The notes beneath the pieces were generated by a model that did no database searches, was not told where the DNA came from, and saw only the letters and a list, made by a program, of their open reading frames with translations. A DNA stretch of 61,996 nt, counting the filler, from Limisphaerales bacterium (GTDB taxonomy: Bacteria > Verrucomicrobiota > Verrucomicrobiia > Limisphaerales > SIBE01), in assembly GCA_044225505.1 (NCBI GenBank). It is 4 parts of 4 records of this genome, joined end to end, with 100 filler letters (N's around TTAATTAATTAA, not from the genome) between each part and the next. Parts side by side here need not be neighbours in the genome. Positions count along the whole stretch, not along the records: positions 27,727 to 56,559 come from JBGAIN010000109.1; 3 more parts are not named here. One strand, 5' to 3'. Position numbers and translations under genes: made by a program. Positions 33,778 to 51,056 of the stretch are shown piece by piece. Position 1 is the stretch's first letter, and the number at the start of each line of letters is the position of its first letter.

Positions 33778-34899
33778 TTAAGCAAATTGGAAGCCTGTCG
33801 GCCGCAAGGCGGGCAGCAACCGGGAACTGCCCTCGCGAGATCCTCCCGGGCGAGCGCCAGGCGAACTTCTCAGGAGCGACTCGGCTGAAGCTTCGGCATG
33901 CTGCGCGACCAGACTTTCACACGCAGATGCTTCTGTCTGACGACGCTCCATATTGAGACGCGCGAGTTCGGAAAGCTGGTCGATGTTATAAAGATAGACA
34001 GAGTTGATCTGCAGTGCGGCTGGGTCGATGTCTCGCGGCACAGCCAAGTCGATGAGAAGCAATGGACGGTCCGGACGTTGCGCCCGCGCGGCGGCCACGT
34101 CGGCACGCTCCAGAACATAGTGCGGAGCGCTCGTAGAGCTGACCACGATGTCCGCTTGAACAAGCGCGCGCGACAATTCGCTGAATGGGACTGCTTCCCC
34201 TTGAAACTGGCTAACCAACTCTTGAGCCCGTTCAAACGAACGATTGGTGACGAGAATCGATTTCGTCCCGTGCTTGCTCAAGTGCTTCAAAGTCGTCTCG
34301 CCCATCTTCCCAGCTCCGATGATCAGAATGGTCCGCTTGGACAAGTCTTCCCCAAAAATCTGCATGGCCAGATCCAGGGCCACAGACCCGACTGAAGTGG
34401 AGCAGCGGCCGATGCCAGAACGTGTCCGCACTTCTTTGGAAATCGACAAGGCCTTCTGAAAAAGCCGGTTTAAGACTTTGCCTGTAGTCCCGCTCGTTTG
34501 CGCGAGTTGATACGCTTTCTTGACCTGCCCTACGATTTCGGTTTCGCCCACCACCAGAGAATCCAAGCTGCTGGCCACACGGTAGAGGTGGCGGATGCAA
34601 GCTTCGTTCCGGTGCACGTACAAATGGGGTTGCACTTCCGCATAGTGCGCTTCCGGCGAAGCCACCCCATGGGCCTGAGCTAATACTTCCATCACGCGCG
34701 CTGGCGAAATGGTGCTTTGAGCGCTCACTCCGTAGATCTCCAGGCGATTGCACGTGCTGAGCACTAAGACCTCGTCTAAACCCGCGTCGCTGCGAAGCGC
34801 CGCTAGAAACCGTGGCAGCTGATCCGCGGTGACCGAGAATCGCTCCCGGAACTCCAACGGAGTGGTGCGGTGGCTAAGGCCGATGATGCAAAGTTCCAT
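33778..34899 (-). CDS. hemA: Glutamyl-tRNA reductase
   Basis: 'GLSHRTTP', 'STCNRLE', 'SLVVGETEI.GQVK', 'GAGKMG', 'DLAVPRDI'; C-terminal dimerisation helices short or absent. Confidence 0.96.
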   Translation of the reverse strand: MELCIIGLSHRTTPLEFRERFSVTADQLPRFLAALRSDAGLDEVLVLSTCNRLEIYGVSAQSTISPARVMEVLAQAHGVASPEAHYAEVQPHLYVHRNEACIRHLYRVASSLDSLVVGETEIVGQVKKAYQLAQTSGTTGKVLNRLFQKALSISKEVRTRSGIGRCSTSVGSVALDLAMQIFGEDLSKRTILIIGAGKMGETTLKHLSKHGTKSILVTNRSFERAQELVSQFQGEAVPFSELSRALVQADIVVSSTSAPHYVLERADVAAARAQRPDRPLLLIDLAVPRDIDPAALQINSVYLYNIDQLSELARLNMERRQTEASACESLVAQHAEASAESLLRSSPGARPGGSREGSSRLLPALRPTGFQFA

Positions 34900-35176
34900 A
34901 AAATCCGACCGGAGCATGAAGTTTCAGCAGTTGGAGAACTACACGTCCCTTGCTTTTGCTCTTCCCTATTTTGGCATGGACCGGCACCGGATAGTGCCAA
35001 GGCTGGCGACCGCCTGCCTTCGCTCCAGCACTGGCCAGCGCGGATCCGAGGCCCTTGATTGCGAAAAGTCCGGGCGCGCGAGCCGACGCGAGGAAGGCTG
35101 TTAGTTGAGAGGGAAAGGCTCCATTTCCGTTGGCTTGACAGTGTGGCCGCTTTGGATCACAAGACTTTTCTACGCG

Positions 35177-35755
35177 ATGAAAGCATTCAAACTCTTCGCC
35201 ATTCTGGTCGGCAGTGTAGTTCTTCTTGGTTCAAAGGCCGCGGACGAGCCTGGCGCCCCTTGGCAAACACTCTTCAACGGAAAAGACATGACTGGCTGGG
35301 TGCCAGTGCACGAAGTCACTTTCGACGTTGCCGACGAACACTTGCGGCTTGTCAAGGGGATGGGGTGGCTCCGGACGGAGAAGGAATACGGCGACTTCAT
35401 TCTGGAGTTTGAATGGCGCGCCTTGGACGAGCAATACGACAGCGGATTCTTCTTGCGAGCCGGCCTGGACGGCAAACCGTGGCCGAAGGATGGCTGGCAG
35501 CTCAACCTTCGCTATAACCAGGTGGGCGCTTTGGTGAAAGGGTTTCGCACGGTCGTTCCCGCAGAAACGCCGAAAGTGCCGATCGGTCGTTGGTGTAAGT
35601 TCCGCATCGAAGCGCGGGGCGCGAAAGTCAAACTCGTCGTCGATGGCGAGGATGCTTGGGAGACCGACAAATTAGACAGTCCGAGGGGCTACTTGGGCAT
35701 CCAGGCTGAGAACAAAGCTTTCGAGTTCCGCAATCTGCGTCTTCAAGCGCTCTAA
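35177..35755 (+). CDS. DUF1080 / 3-keto-disaccharide hydrolase family protein
   Basis: 'LFNGKDMTGW', 'YGDFILEFEW', 'DSG', 'GYLGIQ', 'FRNL'; signal peptide. Confidence 0.9.
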   Translation: MKAFKLFAILVGSVVLLGSKAADEPGAPWQTLFNGKDMTGWVPVHEVTFDVADEHLRLVKGMGWLRTEKEYGDFILEFEWRALDEQYDSGFFLRAGLDGKPWPKDGWQLNLRYNQVGALVKGFRTVVPAETPKVPIGRWCKFRIEARGAKVKLVVDGEDAWETDKLDSPRGYLGIQAENKAFEFRNLRLQAL

Positions 35756-36144: not shown

Positions 36145-36474
36145 ATGAAAAGAATACTGACGATCTGTTTCGCTATCCTCGCAGCTTCGGCTGTCTCGGC
36201 GTGGGCCGCGGATGGAAAGGCCTTTTACGACAAGGATTGCGCCAAATGCCACGGCGCCGATGGCAAGGGCGAGACCAAGATGGGCAAGAAGCTTGGGGCA
36301 AAGGATTACACCGATGCCAAAGTCCAAGCTGAGCTCACGGACGACCAAGCCATCAAGGCGGTGAAAGAAGGTTTAAAAGACAAAGCTGGCAAAACATTGA
36401 TGAAGCCGGCTGAAGGAGCCTCGGACGCGGACATCAAAGCGGTCGTGGCATTCATGCGAACCTTTAAGAAATAA
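36145..36474 (+). CDS. Periplasmic monoheme class I cytochrome c
   Basis: Signal peptide, 'CAKCH', distal Met in 'LMKP'. Confidence 0.93.
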   Translation: MKRILTICFAILAASAVSAWAADGKAFYDKDCAKCHGADGKGETKMGKKLGAKDYTDAKVQAELTDDQAIKAVKEGLKDKAGKTLMKPAEGASDADIKAVVAFMRTFKK

Positions 36475-36666
36475 GGTCTGGCCCAGCGTTGCAGCACCGA
36501 CAAGCGGCCGCCTCGGAGCGGCTGAAGACTGACGCCCGAGGCTGTTTTTCAGGGCAACTGGACCGGTTGGTAGTGCTGCGACGTTCGGGGAAGGCAGAGC
36601 ACAGTCGTCCTGCGTTGGTTTAGGATGAACAACAAAAACTCCGCGCGGATCGTCTGACTTCAACTC

Positions 36667-38143
36667 ATGAGCACCGATAACACTCCGCAAAACCCATCGC
36701 GCCTGTCGATTTTTCAATTGGATGAGTCTGAGCGGATTGGTCGTTGTTTTAGGAAGTCTGTTCGCGTTCGTGCTGCTCTTCACGATCGATAGCCTCGCGC
36801 ACGTTTCGAATCCCTACATCGGAATCTTGACCTATTTCATTACTCCTGGATTTACCGTCCTGGGAATGGTTTTGATGGCGTTGAGGGTCGTCTTGCGACG
36901 CCGCCGCGGGATGAAAGGGATTCCGTTTGTCGCCCGTCGTCACGATTGACCTATCCCGTCGCGCGACCGCAAGTTGCTCATGTATTTCTTGGGGTGCAGC
37001 ACGGCGTTTTTGCTGATCACAGCGATCGGCACGTATCACAGTTATCATTTTACCGAGTCAGTGACCTTTTGCGGTCAAGCCTGCCACACGGTGATGGAGC
37101 CGGAAATGGTCGCTTACCAGAACGGGTCCCATGCGCGAGTTGCTTGCGCGGAATGCCATATCGGTCCGGGAGCGACGTGGTACGTTCGATCCAAACTCTC
37201 GGGCGCCTATCAGGTCTACGCGACTTTCGCAAACAAATATCCCCGGCCGATTCCAACTCCGATTTCGAATTTGCGCCCGGCACAAGAGACCTGCGAGCAA
37301 TGCCATTGGCCGAAGAAGTTCGTCGGCAATCTGGAGCGCACCTATACTCACTTCCTGAGCGAGGAGACAAATCCCGTCCACCAGGTTCGAATGTTACTGA
37401 AGGTCGGTGGAGCTGATCCCACCCATGGACCTCTGGAAGGCATTCACTGGCACATGAACGTCGGCAACAAGATTGAATACATCGCCGCAGATGAAAGCCG
37501 TCAGAAGATCCCCTGGGTGCGGATGACCGATGCCCAAGGCGCGGTCACTGAGTTTCGCACGGACAAGTTTACTAACCAGGTGAATGAAGCGTCGGTGCGC
37601 CGCATGGACTGCATGGACTGCCATAATCGTCCCGCGCACGTTCTGCAATCGCCGAATGACGCCATCGATCTCGCCATGCATGTCGGGCAGATTTCCACGA
37701 AGATTCCCTACATCAAAACCAATGCGGTTTACGCCTTGATGCAAACGTTTACCAATCGAACGGACGCGATGCAGGGCATCGCCACGTTTTTGACGGGCAA
37801 GTATCCCAGCGAACCGACGATTCGAACGGTCATTGAGTCCGTGCAACAGATTTACGAGCACAACTTCTTCCCGGAAATGAAGGCGAGTTGGCGAGCATAT
37901 CCCAATAACATCGGACACAAAGATTGGCCAGGTTGCTTTCGGTGCCATGATGGGAAGCATCAGTCTGCCGACGGCAAACACACCATCAAAGGCGACAACT
38001 GCAACGCGTGCCACGTCATCCTTGCTCAAGGCAGCGGCAATGATCTTCAGCAATTAACTCCGCAAGGCCAGGAATTCAAACACCCTGGCGAGGAGTTAGA
38101 GAAAGGGTTCCTCTGTAATGATTGTCACACTGGCGGTCCATAG
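36667..38143 (+). CDS. ImcH-like inner-membrane NapC/NirT-family heptaheme cytochrome c (reading frame disrupted near 36712 and 36925-36960)
   Basis: Three N-terminal TM helices (ORF pieces 36722-36949 and 36974-38143); motifs CGQACH, CAECH, CEQCH, CMDCH, CFRCH, CNACH, CNDCH; 'FTES.TFCG..CH.VMEPE', 'NLRPA.ETCEQCHWP' recalled from Geobacter ImcH. Confidence 0.85.
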
Positions 38144-40406
38144 CATTCACGGAGACAAATCCCTGGTCGCGGCAGCATCCGCCCCGACAAGCGCGGGCAG
38201 TGAAGTGTCCGCTGGGGACTCCTCGACCGAATCAGGTCTGGCTCCCGAGCCGGACAGCAGCCGTGGGAGCGCCCGCAAGTTCGAGCGGTGGAGCGGGAGG
38301 TTGGCCAGTACCTTCCGCATTTGGATCCTCCTCGCGTTTGGCTTCGGCCTAAGCTTGAGTGCGGCCGAGACCGCTGCGCCCGCACCTGCACCGACGGCCG
38401 CTGTTCCAGAGCGCTTCGCGAATGCGGACTGTTTGGACTGTCATACCGACCCGAAACTGACCCGCAAGCTCCAAGGCAAAGACGTTCTGCTAGCGGTGGT
38501 GCAAACGAATCTCTTCGAGAAATCGGTGCACGCCAAGCTTGCGTGCGTCGATTGCCACACGGGAGTCAAGGAATTGGTCCACGAAGGGAATCTGCCGCCG
38601 GCCACATGCACGGGCTGTCATGAAGCCCAACCCAGCCACGAAAAAGCCGTGAAAGACTACGCGGTGAGCATTCACGGAATGAGCCGATCGATGGGATCTT
38701 CCGCGGCGGCCACTTGCTCCGATTGTCATGGCACGCACGGAATCGTCGCGGCGAAGAATGTCGAGTCGGCTGTCTTCAAACTCAATTTGCCCCAGACGTG
38801 CGCCAAATGCCACAGCAATGCTGGCCTGACCAAAGAGTACCAGATGAAGTATCCGGAGGTCGGATCGCAATACCAGGATAGCATTCATGGGCGCGCGTTG
38901 TTGAAAATGGGACTGATCGTAGCGCCGTCGTGCAACGATTGCCATGGGGTTCACGATATCAAGCGCCGGGTGGATCGCAGCTCTCCCATCAATCAAGCCT
39001 CCGTAGCCAAGACTTGCGGTAAGTGTCATTTGAAGATCGAAGAGGTCTACAATAAGAGCGTGCACGGACAACTCATGGCCAAGGGCGATCCGCGCGCGCC
39101 GGTGTGTTCGGATTGCCACACGCCCCATCAGATCGAAAGTCCAACCGGGGCGCATTTCAAAGCGATCAGTGACCAGCGCTGCGGCGGTTGCCATCAAGAT
39201 CGACTGGCTCATTATCGCGATACCTACCATGGCAAAGCCATGGCCCTGGGCAAACCGAACGTCGCTCCAGACGTGGCGGCATGCTACGACTGTCATGGAC
39301 ATCACGACGTCTTGCCGGCGTCCGATCCCGCTTCCCATCTTTCGCCCGCGAACATCACGGAGACGTGCAAGCGCTGTCATTCGGGAGCAACGCCCAGTTT
39401 CGCGAAGTACCAGCCGCATGCCAACCCGCTGGACGGGCAGAATTACCCCGCGCTGCATGGAGTCTTTCTCTTCATGACCGCGCTCCTTATCGGTGTGTTC
39501 ACGTTTTTCGGGGCGCACACGTTGCTCTGGCTGTTCCGTTCGGTCTATCTCTACGTGCACGATTCCAAGAAGTTCCGGGAAGCAAAGGTGCACGCGCAAG
39601 CTGACGACGAGATGTTCACTCGCTTTGTGCCGTTTGAACGTTTCCTGCACTTCCTGGTCGTCACGAGCTTCCTTTTGCTGGTGGTGACAGGCATGCCTCT
39701 CAAATTCTACTATTCGGATTGGGCGAAAGCCTTGTTCGGTCTGCTCGGCGGCGCGGAAGTGGCCCGGGGTAACACCTGGGCGAATCGGAACAAACTGCGC
39801 GATCCCAAGTCCGGGCGCTTTCAACTGAAACGCGTCATGGCGGGATTGTTCGGTCCGGACTCGATGATTCCGACCTTGCAGGATTGGCGCGATTTTGTGG
39901 CGCATCAGAAATGGTTTTTCGGTAAAGGCGAAAAGCCGCAATTTGACCGCTGGACGTACTGGGAGAAGTTCGACTATTTCGCAGTTTTCTGGGGTGTGTT
40001 CGCCATCGGCCTTTCCGGCTTGATCATGTGGTTTCCGCAGTTTTTCTCCCGGTTCATGCCTGGATGGATCATCAATATCGCGTTGATCGTGCATTCGGAC
40101 GAAGCCCTTCTGGCAGCCGGATTCATCTTCACGATCCACTTTTTCAACACGCACTTCCGATTGGAGAAGTTCCCCATGGACACCGTGATCTTCTCCGGAC
40201 GTGTCTCGAAGACCGAAATGCTGCACGAACGCAAGCGGTGGTACGATCGCCTGGTGGCGGAGGGGCGACTGGACCAGCACCGTGTCAAAGACGAGTGGGA
40301 ACGCTGGAAGAGCATTGCCCGTTCCTTCGGCTACATCTTCTTCGGTCTCGGAGTGATACTCTTAGTGCTGATTGTGTATGCCATGGCCTCGCGCTTGACA
40401 CACTGA
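38118..40406 (+). CDS. CbcL-like multiheme cytochrome c (11 CxxCH) fused to FdnI-type cytochrome b domain
   Basis: 11 CxxCH counted; 'RWTYWEKFDYFAVFWG', 'HSDEALLA.GFIFTIHFFNTH', 'KFPMD'; true start uncertain (may be downstream). Confidence 0.88.
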   Translation: MIVTLAVHSIHGDKSLVAAASAPTSAGSEVSAGDSSTESGLAPEPDSSRGSARKFERWSGRLASTFRIWILLAFGFGLSLSAAETAAPAPAPTAAVPERFANADCLDCHTDPKLTRKLQGKDVLLAVVQTNLFEKSVHAKLACVDCHTGVKELVHEGNLPPATCTGCHEAQPSHEKAVKDYAVSIHGMSRSMGSSAAATCSDCHGTHGIVAAKNVESAVFKLNLPQTCAKCHSNAGLTKEYQMKYPEVGSQYQDSIHGRALLKMGLIVAPSCNDCHGVHDIKRRVDRSSPINQASVAKTCGKCHLKIEEVYNKSVHGQLMAKGDPRAPVCSDCHTPHQIESPTGAHFKAISDQRCGGCHQDRLAHYRDTYHGKAMALGKPNVAPDVAACYDCHGHHDVLPASDPASHLSPANITETCKRCHSGATPSFAKYQPHANPLDGQNYPALHGVFLFMTALLIGVFTFFGAHTLLWLFRSVYLYVHDSKKFREAKVHAQADDEMFTRFVPFERFLHFLVVTSFLLLVVTGMPLKFYYSDWAKALFGLLGGAEVARGNTWANRNKLRDPKSGRFQLKRVMAGLFGPDSMIPTLQDWRDFVAHQKWFFGKGEKPQFDRWTYWEKFDYFAVFWGVFAIGLSGLIMWFPQFFSRFMPGWIINIALIVHSDEALLAAGFIFTIHFFNTHFRLEKFPMDTVIFSGRVSKTEMLHERKRWYDRLVAEGRLDQHRVKDEWERWKSIARSFGYIFFGLGVILLVLIVYAMASRLTH

Positions 40407-40449
40407 CGGGCAGGCTCGTCGCGGGTCATCCGCAATCGGACGTTGACGT

Positions 40450-42246
40450 ATGGATAAAACCAAGCTTCGTTGGGCTGCCGCGACTGCGGTAGCGATTGGT
40501 CTCATGTTCTTGACCGCGGGAGCGCAGGAGATGAGCAACAAGCAGTGCTTGGATTGCCACGCGGACAAGGAGCTCACCAAGACCAACGACACGGGCAAAG
40601 CGATCTCCTTGTTTGTTGACGAAGCCAAGTTGCTCGCTTCGAGTCACAAGACAAACAGTTGCGCCAGTTGTCACGTCGACCTCAAAGCCACTCACCCGGA
40701 CGACAATGTCGCGGCCAAGCCGGTCGATTGCTCCCGCTGCCACGATAAGCCGTCTCAGACCTACCGCGAGAGCGTTCATGGGCTCGCGGTGCTCGCTGGA
40801 AAGGCGGATGCCGCAACTTGTAAGGACTGCCACGGCTCGCACGAAGTACTGCCTCCGAACTCTCCCTTATCCCCGTTGCATTATTCCAAACTCGCCACGA
40901 CCTGTGGCGAATGTCATCCGGAGCAGGCCCAGGACGTGCAAGCTAGTGTGCATGGGAAAGCCTCCGCCAAAGGCATGCGCGAGGCCCCCACCTGCACGGA
41001 CTGTCACTCGGAGCACAAGATCGAAGGACTTAAGGCGAGTTCGACGAAAGTGACCGAACAGATGTGCAGCAAATGCCACGCGTCCGAAAGGCTGAATACC
41101 AAATACCGGCTGCCCGCAGACCGCGTCCAAACCTTTTTCGAAAGTTATCACGGCTTGGCAGTGCAGTTCGGGTCCACGCGGGTGGCCAACTGCGGCAGTT
41201 GTCACGGTGTGCACAAAATCCTGCCTTCGTCCGATCCGGAATCCACAATTCATCCCAAGCATTTGGTGGAAACCTGCGGCAAGTGCCATCCGGGCGCTAA
41301 CGAAACGTTTGCCCTGGCCAAAATGCATGTCAGCCCGGACGGCACCGAATTCGGTACGGTGGTGAATCGTTATGTCCGGCGTGGCTACATCGGAATGATT
41401 GTCGCCGTGATCGGATTTATGCTCTTGCACAATGGGCTCATCTGGGCACGCAAGATCTTCGCATCGTATCGAGCCAAGAGCAGGACTGTCCAACGCATGA
41501 CCCGAGCTCAGCGAATGCAGCACTTGGTTCTTTTGCTAAGTTTTACGTTCCTGGCGTTGACCGGCTTTGCACTCAAATACCCGGACTCATGGCTGGCTTG
41601 GGCTCTTGGTGCGAATGAGGCGATCCGTCGCTGGAGCCACCGTATCGCGGGAGTTGTGCTGCTGTTTGCAGGCCTGTTTCATATTGGTTACCTCTTCGCC
41701 ACGCGGGAAGGGCGGCAGTTGCTCTTCGATCTGTTTCCCCGAGTCCAGGATGTGCGCGATTTCTTCACCAACTGTCGGTTTCTGACCAGTCGCGGTCGGC
41801 CGAAACCCAAATTTGGGCGGTTCGGTTATGTGGAGAAGGCGGAGTATTGGGCGGTCGTCTGGGGAACGATTATCATGGGGGTTACCGGCCTCATGATCTG
41901 GCTAAAGATCGATGTGACCCGATACTTGCCCCGCTGGGCGGTGGATGTTGCCACCACGATTCACTATTACGAAGCGATCCTCGCCTGCCTCGCAATTGTG
42001 GTTTGGCACTTTTACCACGTTATCTTCGATCCGGATGTTTATCCGATCAATTGGGCGTGGTGGGATGGGAACGTGGATGCTCATTGGTATGAAGAAGAGC
42101 ATCCGCTGGATACCGCGGCGCTCGCAGGGAAATCACATCCGGCGGCTTCAACTCAGTCTTTTGTTGCCGCGGGCGACCGCAAATCAGCTTCGCGACTCTC
42201 TCCGTCGGATCCTTCGAACCCAGGGCACAATGGAGGCCGTGGATAG
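40450..42246 (+). CDS. Second multiheme cytochrome c (9 CxxCH) / cytochrome b fusion
   Basis: Signal peptide, 9 CxxCH, cytochrome b His ligands 'RMQH', 'WSHR...LFH', 'IHYYE...WHFYH', 'RFGYVEKAEYWA'. Confidence 0.9.
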   Translation: MDKTKLRWAAATAVAIGLMFLTAGAQEMSNKQCLDCHADKELTKTNDTGKAISLFVDEAKLLASSHKTNSCASCHVDLKATHPDDNVAAKPVDCSRCHDKPSQTYRESVHGLAVLAGKADAATCKDCHGSHEVLPPNSPLSPLHYSKLATTCGECHPEQAQDVQASVHGKASAKGMREAPTCTDCHSEHKIEGLKASSTKVTEQMCSKCHASERLNTKYRLPADRVQTFFESYHGLAVQFGSTRVANCGSCHGVHKILPSSDPESTIHPKHLVETCGKCHPGANETFALAKMHVSPDGTEFGTVVNRYVRRGYIGMIVAVIGFMLLHNGLIWARKIFASYRAKSRTVQRMTRAQRMQHLVLLLSFTFLALTGFALKYPDSWLAWALGANEAIRRWSHRIAGVVLLFAGLFHIGYLFATREGRQLLFDLFPRVQDVRDFFTNCRFLTSRGRPKPKFGRFGYVEKAEYWAVVWGTIIMGVTGLMIWLKIDVTRYLPRWAVDVATTIHYYEAILACLAIVVWHFYHVIFDPDVYPINWAWWDGNVDAHWYEEEHPLDTAALAGKSHPAASTQSFVAAGDRKSASRLSPSDPSNPGHNGGRG

Positions 42247-42568
42247 TTCCCCGGCATTGGCCCTGTGAAGACCTAAACCCTGGCGTAGCCACCACGTTGC
42301 ACGGACGCGGCCCGCTTCCCATTTCTCAATCACGATCGGAGTCTCCAGCTCGGCCGACGTGTTCATGTCGGGTCATGGTTTTCTAAACCAAAATAGGTAA
42401 AGCAAAGAGCAACCCGAGTGTAGAGCTCCTAGTAGAGAGGTTTACTGTCGGTCGCGGAAACCTATGAGAGTCTAATTGCACAACGGTGGAAGAGCGGCTT
42501 TTCGTATGCACCCGCCTTTTTGCCCCGAGCGTGCCACGAGACCTCGTCAGCGATCGCAGGACAAACAA

Positions 42569-44248
42569 ATGAACAGACTAAACCAGCAGCTCAAGGGAGG
42601 CTCCCGGGGTAGGACGAGCCATCATGAAAGGAGAGTGGCCTTGGCCATACTCCTTGTCGCTGCTTCTGTGGGAGCAAGCCGTGCCGCAGAAAGCAGTTTA
42701 CCAAAAATCGTGCGGGCGGAAGGCGGCATTAGCCCGAAGCCAGTCGTCACGGCGGTCTCACGCTCGGCGGGGACTCCGAACAGTGTTCAAGTCGACTGGC
42801 AGGGCTTCGGTGGCCCGTACCAGATTGTCAAGTGTCCCGCACTTAAAGGTACGAATAGCACATGGTCCACCGTGGCGACAGTCACCAATGCCACCAGCGC
42901 GACCGTGGCGATTGACGGGGACGCCGGATTCGTGAGCGTCCAAGGGCCAGATCCAGCCTACATTGGGGCAGAGCGTTGCAGCCTTTGCCATATTGATACA
43001 CACGCGACTTGGACCAACACCGTCCATGCCGGGGCGTTTCAGACCTTGAAGAACATCAAGATGGAGAAGAATGCCTCCTGCCTTCCGTGTCACGTGGTGG
43101 CCTACGGGACAACCACTGGGTTCATTAACGAGGAGACCACTCCTCACCTAGCGGGTGTGCAATGTGAGAATTGCCACGGTCCAGCCGCGGCGCACGCGCG
43201 AAATCCGTTGCGCACCAAGCCGCCCATCGTGACGCTCTCCGCGGAGATGTGCGGCGGTTGCCATACCGATGTGCATCATCCCACCTATGATGAGTGGGCC
43301 AGCTCCGGTCACGGCAGTCTCGTGATTCCCGAAGAAGAGTTCTCGGACCCAACGACTGGTCCTGGGCGCATGCTGACCTGCGGCGCGTGCCATTCCGGGG
43401 CAGCCCGAATGGCCCTGCTCAACGGAGTTATCTATGGACAGGAGCCAGAACTGCCCAGCACAGAAGAGGCATCCACCACCGCGATCACGTGCGCTGTTTG
43501 TCATAGTGCGCATGTGAAGACCGAAAACCCGGCACAACTGCGTTTTCCGCTGCATTCCGAGATGCCCTACAGTTACAGCACCGCGACGAACTTTGTCGCC
43601 AATTACAATCCGCAAGTGCAGACCTGCGCGCAATGTCACAATATGCGCGGCGCCAGTTGGAAAGGCACCAGCCGTCCGCCTCATCACTCGCCACAGTACA
43701 ACATCCTGATTGGCAACGGCGGCTTTGAAGCTGGAATCACAAACGTGCCGCAATCCGCGCATATGAAGATCGAGAATCAGTGCGCCCAATGCCACACGCA
43801 TCTAAACGAGCCCGACGAGATCACGGAGCAGACTCCGGTTTACACGGGCCACAACTTCACTCCGACCATGAAAGCGTGCGCTCCGTGCCATGACGAACTG
43901 GGCGGCGAGTTGCTGATGGAGGCCGTGCAAGGCAACGTCAAGAAGCAGATTGCTGAAATCAAAGCATTGCTCGATCAATGGGCTCTCACCAAGGCTCCGG
44001 AAGCGTTGCGAACGAAATACGGAAGCTTAGCCTGGGAATTCCAGAACATCGGCCAATTGTCCAAGGCGACGCCAACCGTCAAAACTGGCCCTACGGCTGC
44101 CGAACAAGCAGGCGTTCCGGACAACATCAAGCAAGCTCGTCATAATATCTACATGATCGAACATGACGGCAGCTACGGTGTACACAACGGCAATTACGCC
44201 CGTTTTCTTTTGAAAGTCGCTCGCGACAAGGTTAAAGCCGAACTTTAA
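42569..44248 (+). CDS. Secreted nonaheme cytochrome c (c554-like N-terminal part, c552/OmcB-like C-terminal part) with extra N-terminal beta-domain
   Basis: SPI-type signal '...ASRA', 9 CxxCH, 'PHHSPQ', 'TGHNF', 'DGSYGVHN'; no CxxCK, no lipobox. Confidence 0.87.
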   Translation: MNRLNQQLKGGSRGRTSHHERRVALAILLVAASVGASRAAESSLPKIVRAEGGISPKPVVTAVSRSAGTPNSVQVDWQGFGGPYQIVKCPALKGTNSTWSTVATVTNATSATVAIDGDAGFVSVQGPDPAYIGAERCSLCHIDTHATWTNTVHAGAFQTLKNIKMEKNASCLPCHVVAYGTTTGFINEETTPHLAGVQCENCHGPAAAHARNPLRTKPPIVTLSAEMCGGCHTDVHHPTYDEWASSGHGSLVIPEEEFSDPTTGPGRMLTCGACHSGAARMALLNGVIYGQEPELPSTEEASTTAITCAVCHSAHVKTENPAQLRFPLHSEMPYSYSTATNFVANYNPQVQTCAQCHNMRGASWKGTSRPPHHSPQYNILIGNGGFEAGITNVPQSAHMKIENQCAQCHTHLNEPDEITEQTPVYTGHNFTPTMKACAPCHDELGGELLMEAVQGNVKKQIAEIKALLDQWALTKAPEALRTKYGSLAWEFQNIGQLSKATPTVKTGPTAAEQAGVPDNIKQARHNIYMIEHDGSYGVHNGNYARFLLKVARDKVKAEL

Positions 44249-44262
44249 TCCTGAGTCCGTTC

Positions 44263-44304
44263 ACGCGGGTTGGTCGCTCTCGGGCCAGCCCGCGTTTTCG
44301 TTTT
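44263..44304 (+). terminator. Rho-independent terminator closing the cytochrome locus
   Basis: ACGCGGGTTGG...CCAGCCCGCGT stem followed by TTTCGTTTT just after stop 44248. Confidence 0.75.
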
Positions 44305-44436: not shown

Positions 44437-45717
44437 CTACCTTCGGACCTGACGAGTGACCAGGAAGTTGGCGATCCAGCTGGAAAGGAAGATTCCCACT
44501 GCAAAAAGACCGATCAACCCGCCGAAGGTGGGATGAGTCGAGCCGCGTGTCGTTTCTATCTCAGCCATGGCCATCAACGAGGCGAAAGCCCCGAGCCCAG
44601 CTCCAACCACCGCCACGGTGTAGCCAAGCATCACGCGGCGCGGCCAACCTTTTGGACATTTGAACACCGCCGCGACGGGCAGAACGGAGAACGCGAAGAC
44701 GGCTGTTCCAGCCAACAATCGCGGATCCGCGAGCGCCCCTGCCAAACAGAGCACAGAAAGCCCGACGAACGCCCCGACACAGGTGGACGCCAAGCGTTCT
44801 TCCTCGCTCAGCACCAGTCTGCCAAACCGGTTCAAGCGCAAGAGCAAATTGAACAATGGCTCAGCCGTCCAGGTGAGAAAGACAAAGATCAAGTAGAGGA
44901 TTTGGACCGGGAAGAGGTAAGGCTGAAGTTCGGGGCGCGCCGAGGAGAGCCCGCGCAATAGCCGCATCCCAAAGTATCCGCCCATGATCACCCCCCATTG
45001 CATTTGGCTGCTCAAACGCGACATCCAGAGAAAATACTTCAGCAACAGGGAATAGGTGAAATAACGGGCCTTCAGGGCCTCGACCGTGCCTTGCCTGGCC
45101 CATTCGTTTTCCGGATCGAGTCGCAGCGATTCGCAAAAGTGTTCCAACGCTTTCTTGTGTTCGCCGGAATGCAGCAAGGTCCAGCCTTGGTTCGCATGGG
45201 TCACCGAATTCTCCGGGTTCCTGGCCAGCGCCGCTTCGATCGTTTGACCAGCCTCCTCTTTCCTCCCAAGCTTAACGAGGGCGATCGCACGCAAGTTGGT
45301 ACATCCCACATGTTCCGGATCATGCTCTAACCCGCATTCCGCCGCGGTGAGGGCTTCTGCCCATTTGCGTTGGTTGACCAGCACTTGGGCGTGGAGCGCG
45401 CGATAGCTCGACTCTCCAGGCTCTAGCGCGATCGCTTCCGCAACGGCCGTTTCCGCGCCGGCGTAATCGTCACGCTCATTGAGAATCAACGCGCGCGCAT
45501 AATGGACGAACGACATCCCCGGATCGGCGCGCAGAGCCTCTTTCACTTCGTTTTCCGCTTCGTCAAACCGCTCTTGATGGGAAAGGCTCAGCGCTAGCAT
45601 AGCGCGGACGTACGCATCGTCAGGATCAGCGGCAGCGGCTTGCCTGAACTCAGGTTCAGCCTGTTGAAACCGCGACTGCTCGTAGAGCAGCAATCCCCTT
45701 TGAAGGTTCGGATTCAT
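44437..45717 (-). CDS. TPR-repeat protein with C-terminal transmembrane helices
   Basis: About 6 TPRs then about 6 hydrophobic helices; starts 8 bp after the AAA gene stop. Confidence 0.85.
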   Translation of the reverse strand: MNPNLQRGLLLYEQSRFQQAEPEFRQAAAADPDDAYVRAMLALSLSHQERFDEAENEVKEALRADPGMSFVHYARALILNERDDYAGAETAVAEAIALEPGESSYRALHAQVLVNQRKWAEALTAAECGLEHDPEHVGCTNLRAIALVKLGRKEEAGQTIEAALARNPENSVTHANQGWTLLHSGEHKKALEHFCESLRLDPENEWARQGTVEALKARYFTYSLLLKYFLWMSRLSSQMQWGVIMGGYFGMRLLRGLSSARPELQPYLFPVQILYLIFVFLTWTAEPLFNLLLRLNRFGRLVLSEEERLASTCVGAFVGLSVLCLAGALADPRLLAGTAVFAFSVLPVAAVFKCPKGWPRRVMLGYTVAVVGAGLGAFASLMAMAEIETTRGSTHPTFGGLIGLFAVGIFLSSWIANFLVTRQVRR

Positions 45718-45724
45718 GGGACCG

Positions 45725-47080
45725 CTACTTGAGCTTGAGATAAGTGAGGATATCGTCGTAAACCCCGCCTTGGTTCGAGTAAAGCGCGTAATTCTTAGCG
45801 GTCGAAAACCATTCGCGCGTCGTCGGCTTGAGCGTGGCGCCAGCCGCCACCAAATCTTTAGTGGTAATTGGCTTGGTCACTCCCGCGCGCAGCGCTTCCC
45901 GCAACTTGTTCTCCACGGCAACGTCCACTAGCCCTTTCAGGTCGGCGCCCGAAAAACCCTCCGTCTTTTTGGCCACGTGGTCGCAGTCGACGTCTAATGT
46001 CGGACGGTCGCGCAGATGGATCTGCACGATGGCAGCGCGTGCGGCCAGATCTGGCGGCGGTACGAACAGGATGCGATCGAATCGGCCCGGGCGTCGGAAC
46101 GCTGAGTCCAAGTGCCAGGGCGCATTCGTGGCTGCCAAAATGAGCACCCCTTCATTGGAGGCTTTCACTCCATCCAACTCCGCGAGGAATTGATTGATCA
46201 ACTGCCGTGCCGCGCTTTGCCGCATATCACTGCGGCTCGCGCCTAGCGCATCCACTTCATCGAAGAACAGAACACAGGGCGAATGCTCGCGCGCATTCTC
46301 GAAAATCTGGTGCAAATTTCGTTCGCTTGAGCCGATCCACATCTCGAGCACCTCGTTGATCCCCACGGAAATAAAGGACGCCTTGATCTCTCCCGCAGTG
46401 GCTCGCGCCAAATGCGTCTTTCCACAGCCTGGCGGACCGTAAAGCAGAATCCCGCCGCCTGCCTTTTTGCCGTAAGCCTTGTACAAATCCGGATGCGTGA
46501 GCGGCAGGATAATTTTGAGCTGGATCTCTTCCTTGACCTTCTCCATGCCGCCGACATCTTTGAACGCCACGTCCGGTCGCTCTGGTTCTGGCATGGTTGC
46601 CCCTTCTGGGCCATCCGAAGCAGCCCGCACTCGGCCTTCGACCAGCTCACTCTCTTCAGGATCCGCATTGATCCCTAGCCGCTCCGCCAAGGTCGGGTCT
46701 GCCGCTGCGCAGTCCAATTCCACCCCGCGCCGATATTGATCCACCGCCAGACGGATCTCGCCGATTCCCACCAGCAAGCGAGCGTGAAGAATGAAAGCTT
46801 TCGCGGGCGCTTTCGGATCTTTGACAATGGCTTCGATCAGCGCCAGGGCGTGGCTGCTTTTGTTTTGCGCCATAAACGCGCGGGCCAATCCCATTTTTAG
46901 TCCGAGAAGCTGCGGTGCCAGACTTAGGGCTTCGCGAAACTCTTTTTCCGCCTCGGCGGCGTGTCCATGAGAAAGGAGCGATTCCGCGTAATGTTGCCGG
47001 AGCGGAATATTCGTTGGCGTGACCCGGACTGCCTCACGCAGTGGCGCTAATGGATCGCCATCCGAGAATTCGTCGACCAT
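45725..47080 (-). CDS. AAA+ ATPase (classical clade) with N-terminal TPRs
   Basis: Walker A 'GPPGCGKT', pore loop 'MWIG', Walker B 'FFDE', SRH 'ATNAPWHLDSAFRRPGRFD'. Confidence 0.93.
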   Translation of the reverse strand: MVDEFSDGDPLAPLREAVRVTPTNIPLRQHYAESLLSHGHAAEAEKEFREALSLAPQLLGLKMGLARAFMAQNKSSHALALIEAIVKDPKAPAKAFILHARLLVGIGEIRLAVDQYRRGVELDCAAADPTLAERLGINADPEESELVEGRVRAASDGPEGATMPEPERPDVAFKDVGGMEKVKEEIQLKIILPLTHPDLYKAYGKKAGGGILLYGPPGCGKTHLARATAGEIKASFISVGINEVLEMWIGSSERNLHQIFENAREHSPCVLFFDEVDALGASRSDMRQSAARQLINQFLAELDGVKASNEGVLILAATNAPWHLDSAFRRPGRFDRILFVPPPDLAARAAIVQIHLRDRPTLDVDCDHVAKKTEGFSGADLKGLVDVAVENKLREALRAGVTKPITTKDLVAAGATLKPTTREWFSTAKNYALYSNQGGVYDDILTYLKLK

Positions 47081-48434: not shown

Positions 48435-48680
48435 AGCCTGCACCTTGCTCCATCCACATCGCGGTCGGACGAAAACGGTAGTGACTTCTGTTTCGGCACT
48501 ATGGTCTCCAGGCGGATACCGGATTCTCATTGCTGCGTCGACACAGGAGTTACGGCCGGTTTTGACTTGTCGGATGCATGGTCAGGAACTACGGTTCGCC
48601 TGACAATCGCGTTCAGACGCGTCACCAATGGGCTACTTGTGGACTCCGCGCACAGGTCATTTATTTCGGTCAAGTGGAAC

Positions 48681-51056
48681 GTGACTGCAACTCTGGGTTG
48701 GCTCGTAACACTATTTGCCTGGGGGGGATGCCTCGTGCGTGCGGCCGGAGCCCTTCCGAGTTTAGAGGTGATGCATGACGGCCGGAATATGGTGGTTCTG
48801 ACATGGTCACCAGGTGACACCTCGGAGACGGTGAATGATACGGTCGTTTGGTCCACACGGTCTCTAAAGTCTCCCATCGAGTGGAACGTTTTGCCATCGG
48901 ATATCCAACGCCAGGCTGGCCTCGCTTGGATAGAATTAATCGCTGACGAGGCCGGGCGGTTCTTTCGCCTTGGACCGACCGGTCCAACGACCGTCCAGAC
49001 ATCCCCAATAGCCAACGCGCGGGGTGTTTCTCCTCTCCGGGAAGCGGTGGTAAGTTTTTCCAGGCCACTGCAGGAAAATGCCCAACTCCTCCCGGGCCAG
49101 TTTACAGCCACAGTGGCCGGACGGCAGCTTTTGACACGGGCTGATTTGGCGATTCATCGGCAGAAAGTAACGCTCTTTTTCCTCGAGCCGATGCCTCCAA
49201 ACAGCCGTGTCCAAGTCCGATTGGATGGAGCTGGATTACGCGATGTTTGGGGACAAGAAATCGATGGGGATGGAGATGGGCAGCCCGGAGGAACCCTGTT
49301 GTTGGAATTCGAAACGGCGAATAGAGTAGCTGTCGACCAAACGGGGGTTACCGGGCGGGTCTTGGCGGCCGAGCTAATCCCTGACCCAACGGGCGCTGGC
49401 CAAGCGGTCAATCGGCCACTCCAGGGCGTCACGATCACTGTGGATGGCGGGGAAGAAACCTTGCGCACCACCACGGATGCGAATGGATACTTCACGCTGA
49501 TTCCAGCGCCTGCGGGTAGGATCTTCGTTCATATCGATGGTCGGACAGCGACGTCTAGCGTCTGGCCCAATGGCGCTTATTATCCTTTCGTGGGGAAGGC
49601 TTGGGAAGTTGTGGCCGGACGCACCAATAACCTGGCCGGTGGCACGGGCGAGATTTTTCTTCCGCAGATTGCCGCGGACGCGCTGCGGCCTGTCAGCACT
49701 AGCATACACACCCGCGTCGAACTGCCGGACGCAGTGCTTGCGGACCACCCGGACTTTGCCGGCACGGGCTTGACGTTTCCACCAAACTCAGTCTTTTCAG
49801 ATGACGGGACTCGCGGTGGCAGGGTGGGCTTAGCGCCAGTGCCGCCAGACCGCTTGCCAGGGCCGCTTCCCGAGGGGCTGTCCATGCCGTTGGTTATCAC
49901 CGTCCAGACCGATGGACCGGCGAATTTCGATCAGCCGATCCCAGTTTGTCTTCCCAATGTCGCAGACACTCTGGGCAATCCGTTGCCTCCCGGCGCGCAG
50001 GCGGCACTGATGTCGTTCAACCACGACGTCGGTGAATGGGAACGAGTCGGAAGTATGACCGTCTCCGAGGATGGCCGTCTGATCTGCAGTGATCCAGGCT
50101 CTGGGATCATTCAGCCTGGCTGGCATGGACGCCAGTTCCCTGACCCCGATCTCAACCCGGGCCGGCCTCCGCCTCCCGCTCCGAAGCTCCCAACCTCAGG
50201 GCCGCAATGCGGGCCGGGTGCGCCTGGAGCAGGCGGTGCGCCAAGCACTCTCGGGACGGTTCACGGGCCCGCCACGCTGCTTGCGGGCGACAGTCCTTGT
50301 CCTCCCTGTGGCGACTGTGGCAAACCAAAAACATTGTGTGATTGCCTCGACCGTTGTCGGCGCAACCAGGAGTTGGACGAGGCGCTGTGCCAACTTCGTT
50401 ACAACACTAGTCTGCTCGAGTGCCAGCGTCGGGCCCGGGATGAGGCGTTCGAGTGCCGTCGCCGAATTCCGCCCGCTCTCGCTGTCACCGATCCTGAGCT
50501 TTACGCGAGGATGGAAGAAGTCTGTGATGCCCTCGAACAGTCCCGGCTTAGGGAATGCGAAGGACAAGCTCTGTGGGACTATTCACACTGTTTGGAGGCG
50601 GCCCAAGAACGGGAGCGATTCTGCGAGTCTGACTACGCTGGGTGCGGAGGCCTGCCGCCCCTCTGTAACCCGGCAGCGGCTCCAGAGCAACTTGGCGCGC
50701 CGGCGTCTGCCGCATCGCTGGCCCGCTTGCAGCTCGCGACGCTGCCACCCGCAAGCGTTGCTGACCGCGTCCGTGAGGCGTTTGCGCAGATTGACGTGCT
50801 CATCGCTCCTTTCCTCCAGCGTGACGACCCCTTGCCCGACGTTGTGCTCGAAGAGGTCAGGGCATTACGGCAAAACGCCGCAGCTGAGGCTGGGGGAGAC
50901 CTAAGCACGTTCTTACTCAATCAGCGCCACGCTTTAGAACGTGACACCGTGGCGACGCATGGCACGTCCGGAGAATTCTTTGGTGATCAGCCTCCTATCC
51001 AATCCACATCGCCTATCGGTGGTGGAAACGGAAACGGTGTTCGCCTGCCCGATTGA
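48681..51056 (+). CDS. Giant surface protein, segment 1 (terminal beta-domain, Big/Ig-like, carboxypeptidase-regulatory-like domain, Cys-rich insert)
   Basis: Signal-like segment from GTG 48681 (ORF open from 48501); 'DGDGDGQPGG', 'TTTDANGYF', 'PGWHG'; frame appears lost near 50995. Confidence 0.7.
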   Translation: MTATLGWLVTLFAWGGCLVRAAGALPSLEVMHDGRNMVVLTWSPGDTSETVNDTVVWSTRSLKSPIEWNVLPSDIQRQAGLAWIELIADEAGRFFRLGPTGPTTVQTSPIANARGVSPLREAVVSFSRPLQENAQLLPGQFTATVAGRQLLTRADLAIHRQKVTLFFLEPMPPNSRVQVRLDGAGLRDVWGQEIDGDGDGQPGGTLLLEFETANRVAVDQTGVTGRVLAAELIPDPTGAGQAVNRPLQGVTITVDGGEETLRTTTDANGYFTLIPAPAGRIFVHIDGRTATSSVWPNGAYYPFVGKAWEVVAGRTNNLAGGTGEIFLPQIAADALRPVSTSIHTRVELPDAVLADHPDFAGTGLTFPPNSVFSDDGTRGGRVGLAPVPPDRLPGPLPEGLSMPLVITVQTDGPANFDQPIPVCLPNVADTLGNPLPPGAQAALMSFNHDVGEWERVGSMTVSEDGRLICSDPGSGIIQPGWHGRQFPDPDLNPGRPPPPAPKLPTSGPQCGPGAPGAGGAPSTLGTVHGPATLLAGDSPCPPCGDCGKPKTLCDCLDRCRRNQELDEALCQLRYNTSLLECQRRARDEAFECRRRIPPALAVTDPELYARMEEVCDALEQSRLRECEGQALWDYSHCLEAAQERERFCESDYAGCGGLPPLCNPAAAPEQLGAPASAASLARLQLATLPPASVADRVREAFAQIDVLIAPFLQRDDPLPDVVLEEVRALRQNAAAEAGGDLSTFLLNQRHALERDTVATHGTSGEFFGDQPPIQSTSPIGGGNGNGVRLPD

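Follow-up and report, generated by a model that had tools for sequence, protein, structure and literature searches.

A cluster of five cytochrome genes in the genome of a Limisphaerales bacterium (NCBI GenBank assembly GCA_044225505.1) probably encodes a version of an electron-export system that is already known: the inner-membrane part and the terminal part of a porin-cytochrome chain whose MtrB-like pore lies on another contig. The cluster occupies positions 36145–44304 of the DNA analysed here (the window; 61,996 nucleotides, four contigs joined end to end), on contig C198 of a 9.0 Mb genome that is 95% complete. All five genes lie on the plus strand and carry 1 + (6 CxxCH + 1 CxxxCH) + 11 + 9 + 9 = 37 heme motifs, so that a recount agreed with an earlier reading made from the DNA alone (the sequence-only reading). 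Below, contigs of this genome, genomes and loci are designated by C, G and L numbers, and published work is cited for the text sections or tables that concern these proteins.

36145..36474, plus strand: exported class I monoheme cytochrome c of 109 amino acids (aa), heme motif CAKCH (PF00034, E 6e-15)
36667..38143, plus strand: imcH, ImcH-family quinol oxidase with three membrane helices and CxxxCH + 6 CxxCH, 492 aa when intact (motifs, residue spacing); frameshifts after 36715, at 36926 and after 36959
38118..40406, plus strand: cbcL-A, CbcL-type subfamily A with 11 c-hemes, an FdnI-like b-heme domain and an extra C-terminal helix (motifs, alignment); 66 bp missing
40450..42246, plus strand: cbcL-B, CbcL-type subfamily B with 9 c-hemes, a b-heme domain and five membrane segments, intact (PF01292, E 1e-13)
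42569..44248, plus strand: OcwA/OmhA-fold nonaheme cytochrome of 559 aa with a signal peptide without lipobox and a C-terminal helix bundle (sequence and model)
42728..42940, plus strand: FN3-like domain of about 70 residues and six strands, N-terminal in the nonaheme cytochrome (residues 85–155 of its open reading frame (ORF); model)
43274–43279 and 43682–43687, plus strand: two His-His motifs of the nonaheme cytochrome
44263..44295, plus strand: intrinsic terminator closing the cluster (13 pairs; z −4.77, 0/200 shuffles as good)

In the proposed chain, for which we infer the direction of flow, the acceptor, the shuttle and the location of the parts, ImcH, CbcL-A and CbcL-B would each oxidise menaquinol as alternative exits, by analogy with Geobacter sulfurreducens, where ImcH is used for acceptors of high potential and CbcL for those of lower potential. 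The monoheme cytochrome c, or direct contact of multiheme domains, would take the electrons across the periplasm, and a lipoprotein heptaheme inside a 26-strand barrel would carry them across the outer membrane. The nonaheme cytochrome, probably at the surface, would then reduce Fe(III), humic quinones or an electrode.

Membrane cytochromes and the monoheme carrier

The proteins were identified from their motifs, the spacing of residues and the predicted folds. On sequence grounds, the seven-heme protein is a true ImcH. The intact protein of a congener has three hydrophobic N-terminal segments, and the same stretch is found in the window across the frameshifts. A membrane-proximal CxxxCH is followed by six CxxCH, as in the definition of the family by Zhong and Shi (2018; PMC6295460). 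Within the 389-aa ORF of imcH, E28, H38, K74, Q80 and Y89 have the exact spacing of E127, H137, K173, Q179 and Y188 of G. sulfurreducens ImcH (bioRxiv 10.1101/2023.05.03.539133), placing the quinol-site residues at −10 (E), +36 (K), +42 (Q) and +51 (Y) relative to H38 of heme 1. E, H, K and Q were invariant in 30/30 aligned rows. The score against the NrfH family TIGR03153 was 49.5 bits (cut-off 134.2). A second imcH, intact, 57% identical and without cytochrome neighbours, lies alone on contig C222 (L043:9689–11188), and contig C21 carries a fragment, interrupted by a stop, that is similar to the C-terminal 110 residues of the protein (L044:7604–7936).

Both CbcL-type proteins, which are 29% identical to each other, consist of a multiheme c domain fused to an FdnI/HydC-like b-heme domain. 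The five-histidine pattern described for CbcL (bioRxiv 10.1101/2021.04.15.440034), with one histidine in each of helices 1–3 and two in helix 5, is kept in CbcL-A and has equivalents in CbcL-B, whose histidines align with those of FdnI (1kqf_C). In CbcL-A, H427, H471, H513, H641 and H656 were invariant in 30/30 relatives, H513 falling within 22 residues missing from the assembly. A crude hydropathy scan of CbcL-A gave four membrane segments, and alignment showed the extra C-terminal hydrophobic helix; its heme spacing equals that of the 11-heme, six-helix Verrucomicrobia rows in Table S2 of PMC6295460. Its true start is probably near 38301. CbcL-B has five segments and lacks the sixth (C-terminal) helix that defines typical members, but the same survey took in a few CbcL homologs with four to five helices; judged by its sequence, CbcL-B is CbcL-type though no typical family member. 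The two CbcL-type proteins scored 39 and 59 bits against FdnI TIGR01583 (cut-off 115.85), and the CbcL-type score against HyaC TIGR02125 was 22 bits (cut-off 121.5). The ImcH-like and CbcL-type assignments of the sequence-only reading were thus borne out by motifs, residue spacing and b-heme histidines, and scores below the three family cut-offs argue against partner subunits of formate dehydrogenase, hydrogenase or nitrite reductase.

In a quick tree built from 96 membrane domains, which has long branches and no outgroup and serves for the A/B split alone, A and B fall into two deep clades that both include proteins of other phyla; the two genes therefore do not stem from a recent duplication. 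CbcL-A also has 19-heme forms, in which the heme and membrane parts are encoded by one fused gene or by two separate ones; they adjoin imcH in loci from Acidobacteriota, Ignavibacteria, Zixibacteria and KSB1 (L092, L096, L113, L104, L108, L118, L074, L115). A locus of the same genus (L040:7599–13780, genome G001) has the order monoheme-imcH-cbcL-B-nonaheme-hemA without cbcL-A and many frameshifts in cbcL-B and imcH, and looks like an error-rich assembly.

Two genes of the cluster are broken as assembled, a point on which the sequence-only reading had not remarked. The N-terminal membrane part of imcH (ATG at 36667) is out of frame, with a TGA at 36947–36949 before the 389-aa ORF, and cbcL-A lacks 66 bp at 39767/39768, that is, 22 residues including two invariant histidines. 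DNA near-identical to the locus was found in public activated-sludge, bioreactor and wastewater runs. Contigs from these runs had two additional bases after 36715 (4/4 runs, three studies), one base fewer at 36926 and one more after 36959 (3/4 runs, two studies), and 66 more bases at 39767/39768 (3/4 runs, two studies), the fourth run having no cover at the latter sites. With these corrections, imcH encodes 492 aa, equal in length to the gene of congener G002. The breaks are most likely errors of this assembly, because three indels and three single-base differences, common to all covering runs, are packed into 400 bp (36571–36959), a pattern of a poorly supported stretch. Genuine decay of imcH and cbcL-A in the sequenced strain, which would leave CbcL-B and the lone imcH on C222, is highly doubtful. 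All four shared indel events across 11.5 kb do lie in these two genes, and none of the runs with intact forms is shown to be the sequenced strain. However, besides the clustering of differences, the 1.2 kb imcH heme domain is free of stops and indels, and every covering contig (two to three studies) carries the intact form. Read-through of, or selenocysteine at, the TGA at 36947 was ruled out by the two compensating indels found there in other runs.

The monoheme cytochrome c is a candidate periplasmic shuttle. Its best PDB match was Kuenenia c-552 Ks_3358 (E 1e-10), and its sixth heme ligand is likely a Met near the C-terminus. Among 20 relative loci fetched for gene-order comparison, 19 have the monoheme gene upstream of imcH, and a 68% identical paralog lies on contig C231. 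RNA-library contigs covered the monoheme gene and parts of the nonaheme gene in 4/4 runs (four studies), which indicates presence only; imcH had little or no cover and the cbcL genes were patchy, such contig gaps being no measure of expression. Three RNA contigs ending at 36482–36486 suggested a terminator behind the monoheme gene, but this found no support: the hairpin lies beyond these ends, and its stability does not exceed that of shuffled sequence (z 0.20). A sigma-70 promoter scan gave four sites against 3.7 expected.

Outer-membrane barrel and nonaheme cytochrome

The cluster contains neither a barrel nor a lipoprotein cytochrome, as the sequence-only reading had noted; its description as porin-less holds for the locus but fails at the level of the genome, which has two heptaheme-barrel pairs, on contigs C231 and C307. 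On C231 (L041:8874–13663), a heptaheme gene, a 719-aa barrel gene and a nonaheme paralog (49% identical) stand in a row, with the monoheme paralog 3.4 kb further (L041:5167–5493) and two-component genes between. The heptaheme has a lipobox and scored 161 bits as DmsE/MtrA-like, below the cut-off. The structural model, computed for the C231 barrel, has 26 strands (predicted local distance difference test, pLDDT, 77.5; 8-row alignment), and its best structural match was MtrB (6r2q_B; Z 23.5, root-mean-square deviation (rmsd) 4.0, 563 aligned), the next entry reaching Z 18.3. The MtrB_PioB family PF11854 had no match in this genome, and in a control matched 1/14 genomes, below the cut-off; a sequence search of the PDB with the barrel profile also gave no match. 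Because the C231 barrel matches MtrB by fold, the PF11854 miss is a matter of sequence divergence. With two heptaheme-barrel pairs and the MtrB fold, the genome is therefore not porin-less, and Pfam-based porin screens miss conduits of this kind. The C307 pair (L042:10013–13255) belongs to a barrel subfamily that is 27% identical and common in genomes without imcH.

The linkage of these parts was examined in 151 evenly sampled genomes from the order, with 7–10 candidates scored per genome; the counts are thus lower bounds and, as kin are not independent, they are descriptions rather than tests. At least 73 of the genomes have imcH. C231-type barrels (listed matches of at least 628 bits, excluding the C307 copy and not counting 14 weaker matches) occur in 54/73 genomes with imcH versus 12/78 others, and any barrel of the family in 65/73 versus 48/78. 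The distance from imcH to a C231-type barrel is at most 3 kb in 24 genomes and at most 16 kb in 29. The nonaheme was found in at least 45 genomes, all with imcH (45/45) and 42/45 with a C231-type barrel; 33 of the 47 nonaheme genes lie within 3 kb of such a barrel, five directly behind CbcL-B and nine by neither. The order imcH-A-B in a row occurs in at least 15 genomes, 13 of which have a C231-type barrel, seven of them within 16 kb, and the nonaheme follows directly, as in the window, in four.

The window nonaheme resembles the terminal reductase OcwA in sequence (6I5B; phmmer E 1e-14, profile E 1e-31) and in its model (pLDDT 93.9), for which the structural matches were OmhA (Z 18.9) and OcwA (Z 18.6; rmsd 2.8, 327 residues). 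A defining trait of OcwA-type proteins is a His-His motif above each of the open hemes, 2 and 5 (PMC6703420). Both motifs are present in the window protein, and in its family the first occurs in 103/115 rows and the second in 94/115; the second was aligned to that of OcwA by HMMER and the first assigned by its position after heme 4. No lipobox was found in the 115 rows of the family, the window row being cut behind its signal peptide. A patch in the C-terminal part (window 44014–44119) shows dense single-base differences in three runs, one of DNA and two of RNA, which suggests two population alleles or recombination.

The sequence-only reading had concluded that any extracellular step needs another route. 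A pathway that bypasses porins would fit the lack of a porin in the locus and of a PF11854 match in the genome, the lack of a lipobox throughout the nonaheme family and the 8/73 imcH genomes without a barrel match. Nevertheless, this explanation is extremely unlikely given the MtrB fold on C231, the second heptaheme-barrel pair and the barrels that accompany most imcH-A-B rows, and the linkage of 33 nonaheme genes to a barrel type further contradicts the need for another route. Extracellular respiration itself, also proposed in that reading, appears probable from the outer-membrane parts encoded in the genome and from linkage in relatives.

The fold of the nonaheme also bears on a periplasmic reduction of nitrogen oxides, in which an NrfH-like ImcH would supply an NrfA-fold nonaheme for the reduction of nitrite or hydroxylamine. 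The model matches entries of the NrfA family and octaheme nitrite reductases at Z 15–16.5, OcwA reduces both compounds (PMC6703420), and searches of the genome for full-length NrfA found short weak matches only. Against this, the nonaheme has no CxxCK motif, the kcat of OcwA for nitrite is just 1 per minute (PMC6703420), nonaheme genes stand far more often beside a barrel than directly behind CbcL-B, and contig C335 carries a separate tetraheme-FeS-NrfD-octaheme operon, so that we consider this function decidedly improbable. Modules of the latter kind, comprising tetraheme, 4Fe-4S and NrfD genes (L045:6959–11332 on C335; beside imcH in L023, L025, L027, L053, L054 and L062–L064), represent a further quinol-linked unit. 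One or two of them lie directly upstream of monoheme-imcH in many relatives, and some of their NrfD genes carry a cyclic nucleotide (cNMP)-binding insert.

The FN3-like domain of the nonaheme had FN3-type structural matches at Z of about 7, a common level. A hidden Markov model (HMM) of it recovered 36 ORFs of the genome in round 1 and 71 after round 3, and none in the reversed proteome; the domain stands at the very C-terminus in 52/71 of these ORFs, many of them exported proteins. No Pfam or NCBIfam family matched the 10 such stretches searched, and ESM Atlas matches, which are leads only, scored 0.86. Searched against 344 multiheme ORFs of the genome and the fetched loci, the HMM matched 12 rows, namely nine distinct nonahemes, one 16-heme cytochrome and two duplicate rows. 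The domain may have a role in surface display. Evidence for a sorting domain of the type IX secretion system was not obtained: the domain had no family match, and PorV was not found in the genome (the control matched in Bacteroides); an SprA profile matched neither this genome nor the controls. Six secretin matches were found in the genome.

Two other proteins in the window have similar stretches: a 618-aa protein (11311–13167, minus strand) also ends in the FN3-like domain, and an 851-aa protein (48501–51056, plus strand) has a similar stretch near its N-terminus, by eye only. Large exported cytochromes with 16 or 9 hemes (L047:9120–12593 and L049:7912–11931 on C201 and C158; L031:3627–5912; L037:4924–7122) are candidates for further surface cytochromes. 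In the 16-heme cytochrome the HMM places the FN3-like domain near the end, and the others have a look-alike tail by eye only.

Module distribution and direction of electron flow

The conservation of the cluster, named in the sequence-only reading as a check, was confirmed by synteny among the 20 relative loci and the 151 genomes, and its verrucomicrobial host by the closest titled relatives, which are metagenome-assembled genomes of Verrucomicrobiia and Limisphaerales. CbcL-A was found in at least 42 of the 151 genomes, always with imcH (42/42) and directly behind it in 35/42; CbcL-B in at least 38, 37 of them with imcH. Both occur in 33 genomes, A without B in nine and B without A in five, and neither is present in 27 of the 73 genomes with imcH. 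Five A2 matches, in G082 and G149, were weak (E above 1e-90) and remained without assignment. Because the modules assort separately among these genomes, alternative quinol oxidases are favoured over an obligate complex, as that reading had preferred.

Beyond the order, imcH adjoins a CbcL-type gene in 49 of the best 80 of 600 loci, which were grouped by record title into Acidobacteriota (26/29), Verrucomicrobiota-like (13/26), Bacteroidota/Ignavibacteria (6/15) and others (4/10). Most Acidobacteriota pair imcH with subfamily B, and imcH, A and B occur together in Acidobacteriota (L092, L096, L113), Zixibacteria (L118) and Ignavibacteria/Bacteroidota (L104, L108). Three loci titled Bifidobacterium or Bifidobacteriaceae (L051, L053, L058) are typical verrucomicrobial imcH-cbcL loci within the Verrucomicrobiota clade of the tree, and probably come from mislabelled or mixed bins.

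The same counts can be read as one membrane complex of ImcH and CbcL-A, for example one that splits quinol electrons between c-heme and b-heme branches, rather than as alternatives. Such a complex would agree with the occurrence of A only with imcH and mostly directly downstream of it, with the adjacency of imcH and CbcL-type genes in several phyla and with the recurrence of the triads. It is nevertheless quite improbable, in view of the imcH genomes that lack both A and B, the lone second imcH of this genome, the pairing with B instead in most Acidobacteriota and the growth of single-module mutants of G. sulfurreducens (bioRxiv 10.1101/2022.08.31.506072). A complex prediction with ImcH (residues 12–492) and CbcL-A (248–744) of the congener scored 0.00, which is evidence neither way.

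Electrons might also flow inwards, with the barrel-heptaheme pair taking them from Fe(II), reduced humics or other cells, the monoheme carrying them and the CbcL-type proteins reducing quinone, as has been proposed for mtoA-mtoB-mtoD-mtoC of iron oxidisers. A heptaheme gene and a gene of about 700 aa lie just upstream of monoheme-imcH in 6/20 relative loci (L022, L028, L030, L034, L038, L039). In all of these but L022, the order heptaheme-barrel-monoheme-imcH-(cbcL) parallels mtoABDC, whose MtoC is a CbcL homolog (PMC6295460), and the hosts come from activated-sludge and bioreactor samples. Inward flow is quite unlikely, however, since ImcH was restricted to Fe(III) reducers in that survey, cultured Limisphaera reduce ferrihydrite (PMC13608581) and OcwA is described as a terminal reductase (PMC6703420).

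Several points weigh against the export chain that we prefer. Both the direction of flow and the acceptor in this organism are deduced from its genes. L. ngatamarikiensis, described as strictly aerobic, has the same parts (PMC13608581), which are therefore no proof of metal respiration, and the same source calls the Limisphaera nonahemes periplasmic. The barrel family is common without imcH, as its occurrence in 48/78 of the other genomes shows. In G. sulfurreducens, ImcH showed no binding to the monoheme PccH (bioRxiv 10.1101/2023.05.03.539133), which makes the monoheme shuttle step uncertain. The constant association of CbcL-A with imcH fits a complex equally well; the proteins were likened to GSU3259 and GSU0274 through published motifs, spacing and descriptions alone; and kinship among the genomes means that co-occurrence counts overstate the support.

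A broader proposal combines two ideas: that ImcH and two ancient CbcL subfamilies form a single recurring cluster, shared by Verrucomicrobiota, Acidobacteriota, Ignavibacteria/Bacteroidota and Zixibacteria, which equips these abundant heterotrophs for Geobacter-style redox-window switching, and that the OcwA-like reductase of Limisphaerales reaches the surface without a lipid anchor via an uncatalogued FN3-like address domain that dozens of exported proteins also carry. We offer it tentatively, as rather unlikely.

The genes flanking the cluster are as follows.

33778..34917, minus strand: hemA, glutamyl-tRNA reductase (PF05201, E 9e-52), 1.2 kb upstream of the cluster
35177..35755, plus strand: DUF1080 or 3-keto-disaccharide hydrolase-like gene (PF06439, E 3e-30), between hemA and the cluster
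44437–47080, minus strand: TPR membrane protein and AAA+ ATPase, convergent with the cluster

The placement of hemA upstream on the opposite strand, and the ending of the cluster at a terminator, match the sequence-only reading. The hemA gene is often co-located with the cluster in relatives (L031, L040, L052, L057, L059, L060, L062, L066). The DUF1080-type gene had no counterpart in the 20 relative loci searched and is outside the module, and the TPR and AAA+ genes are unlinked to the cluster in relatives.

Comparison with known systems

Part of this system has been published, and to call it undescribed, as the sequence-only reading had suggested, overstates its novelty. A novel verrucomicrobial porin-multiheme complex was proposed by He et al. 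(2017; PMC5615132), and a 2026 peat preprint (bioRxiv 10.64898/2026.05.27.727921) reported expressed porin-cytochrome clusters in Limisphaerales (EET4), with OcwA-like folds among its four systems. Limisphaera strains grow on ferrihydrite, and both the outer-membrane half and Fe(III) reduction are documented in the order. Their Table S5g (PMC13608581) lists a 3-helix 6-heme protein beside a 6-helix 10–11-heme protein, a 5-helix 9-heme protein beside a 9-heme one, all unnamed, and a porin with 6–7-heme and 9-heme cytochromes; these were matched to the window by architecture, not sequence. For strain 4302-co, which reduces Fe(III), no 5-helix 9-heme protein is listed. Zhong and Shi (2018) had listed verrucomicrobial CbcL homologs with 11 hemes and an ImcH from Opitutus in their tables, and reported no mtrAB next to imcH in their survey, from which the barrel-adjacent imcH loci found here differ.

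The published verrucomicrobial porin-cytochrome models leave the inner-membrane entry point unnamed, and the present locus supplies it. ImcH and CbcL are not mentioned in the main text of the peat preprint, whose supplements may name them, or in the sections of the Limisphaera supplement that describe these genes. The literature searched, mostly open-access, likewise yielded no naming of the inner-membrane half in Limisphaerales or of the cross-phylum triad of ImcH and two CbcL proteins, and no description of an FN3-like domain on a nonaheme cytochrome. These three features, the last of them on the terminal cytochrome, are the main points of interest here; the locus is otherwise one of many. 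In the literature examined, tests of the potential-dependent choice between ImcH and CbcL were found for Geobacter alone, including the potential-dependent shut-off of G. sulfurreducens CbcL, which involves V205 and F525 (bioRxiv 10.1101/2022.08.31.506072). With imcH in about half of the sampled genomes (73/151) of an order of soil, peat and sludge and with cultured Fe(III)-reducing Limisphaera, the generality of such switching becomes testable.

Compared with ImcH of G. sulfurreducens (GSU3259), the window protein shares three N-terminal helices, CxxxCH followed by six CxxCH, close heme spacing and the exact quinol-site spacing, but its gene has cbcL-type genes and one for a monoheme cytochrome c as neighbours, and a search of this genome gave no small multiheme ORF like PpcA. 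The CbcL-type proteins share with CbcL (GSU0274), MtrH and MtoC a c domain joined to an FdnI-like b domain and the membrane-histidine pattern, without implying orthology to GSU0274; unlike these, two deep subfamilies are adjacent in the window, A with 11 hemes and B with nine and no sixth helix. Nine collinear CxxCH, both His-His motifs and a C-terminal helix bundle link the nonaheme to OcwA of Thermincola potens (6I5B) and OmhA of Carboxydothermus ferrireducens (6QVM), from which it differs in its diderm host, the additional N-terminal FN3-like domain and a gene usually located beside a porin-heptaheme pair.

As a whole, the system resembles MtrCAB of Shewanella and mtoABDC of iron oxidisers in its 26-strand MtrB-fold barrel, MtrA/DmsE-like insert, monoheme carrier and CbcL-family membrane protein. 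It departs from them in having a lipobox heptaheme instead of a soluble decaheme, a barrel without a PF11854 match and, in place of MtrC, an outer cytochrome with the OcwA fold and no lipobox. The verrucomicrobial porin-multiheme clusters (PMC5615132, EET4 and Table S5g) likewise comprise a novel porin beside a 7–8-heme and an extracellular or OcwA-like cytochrome. EET4, which was compared by its verbal description, and Limisphaera belong to the same order, and the membrane cytochromes of Limisphaera make up the same set when their helices and hemes are counted. The present genome differs in that its barrel and its quinol oxidases are encoded on separate contigs.

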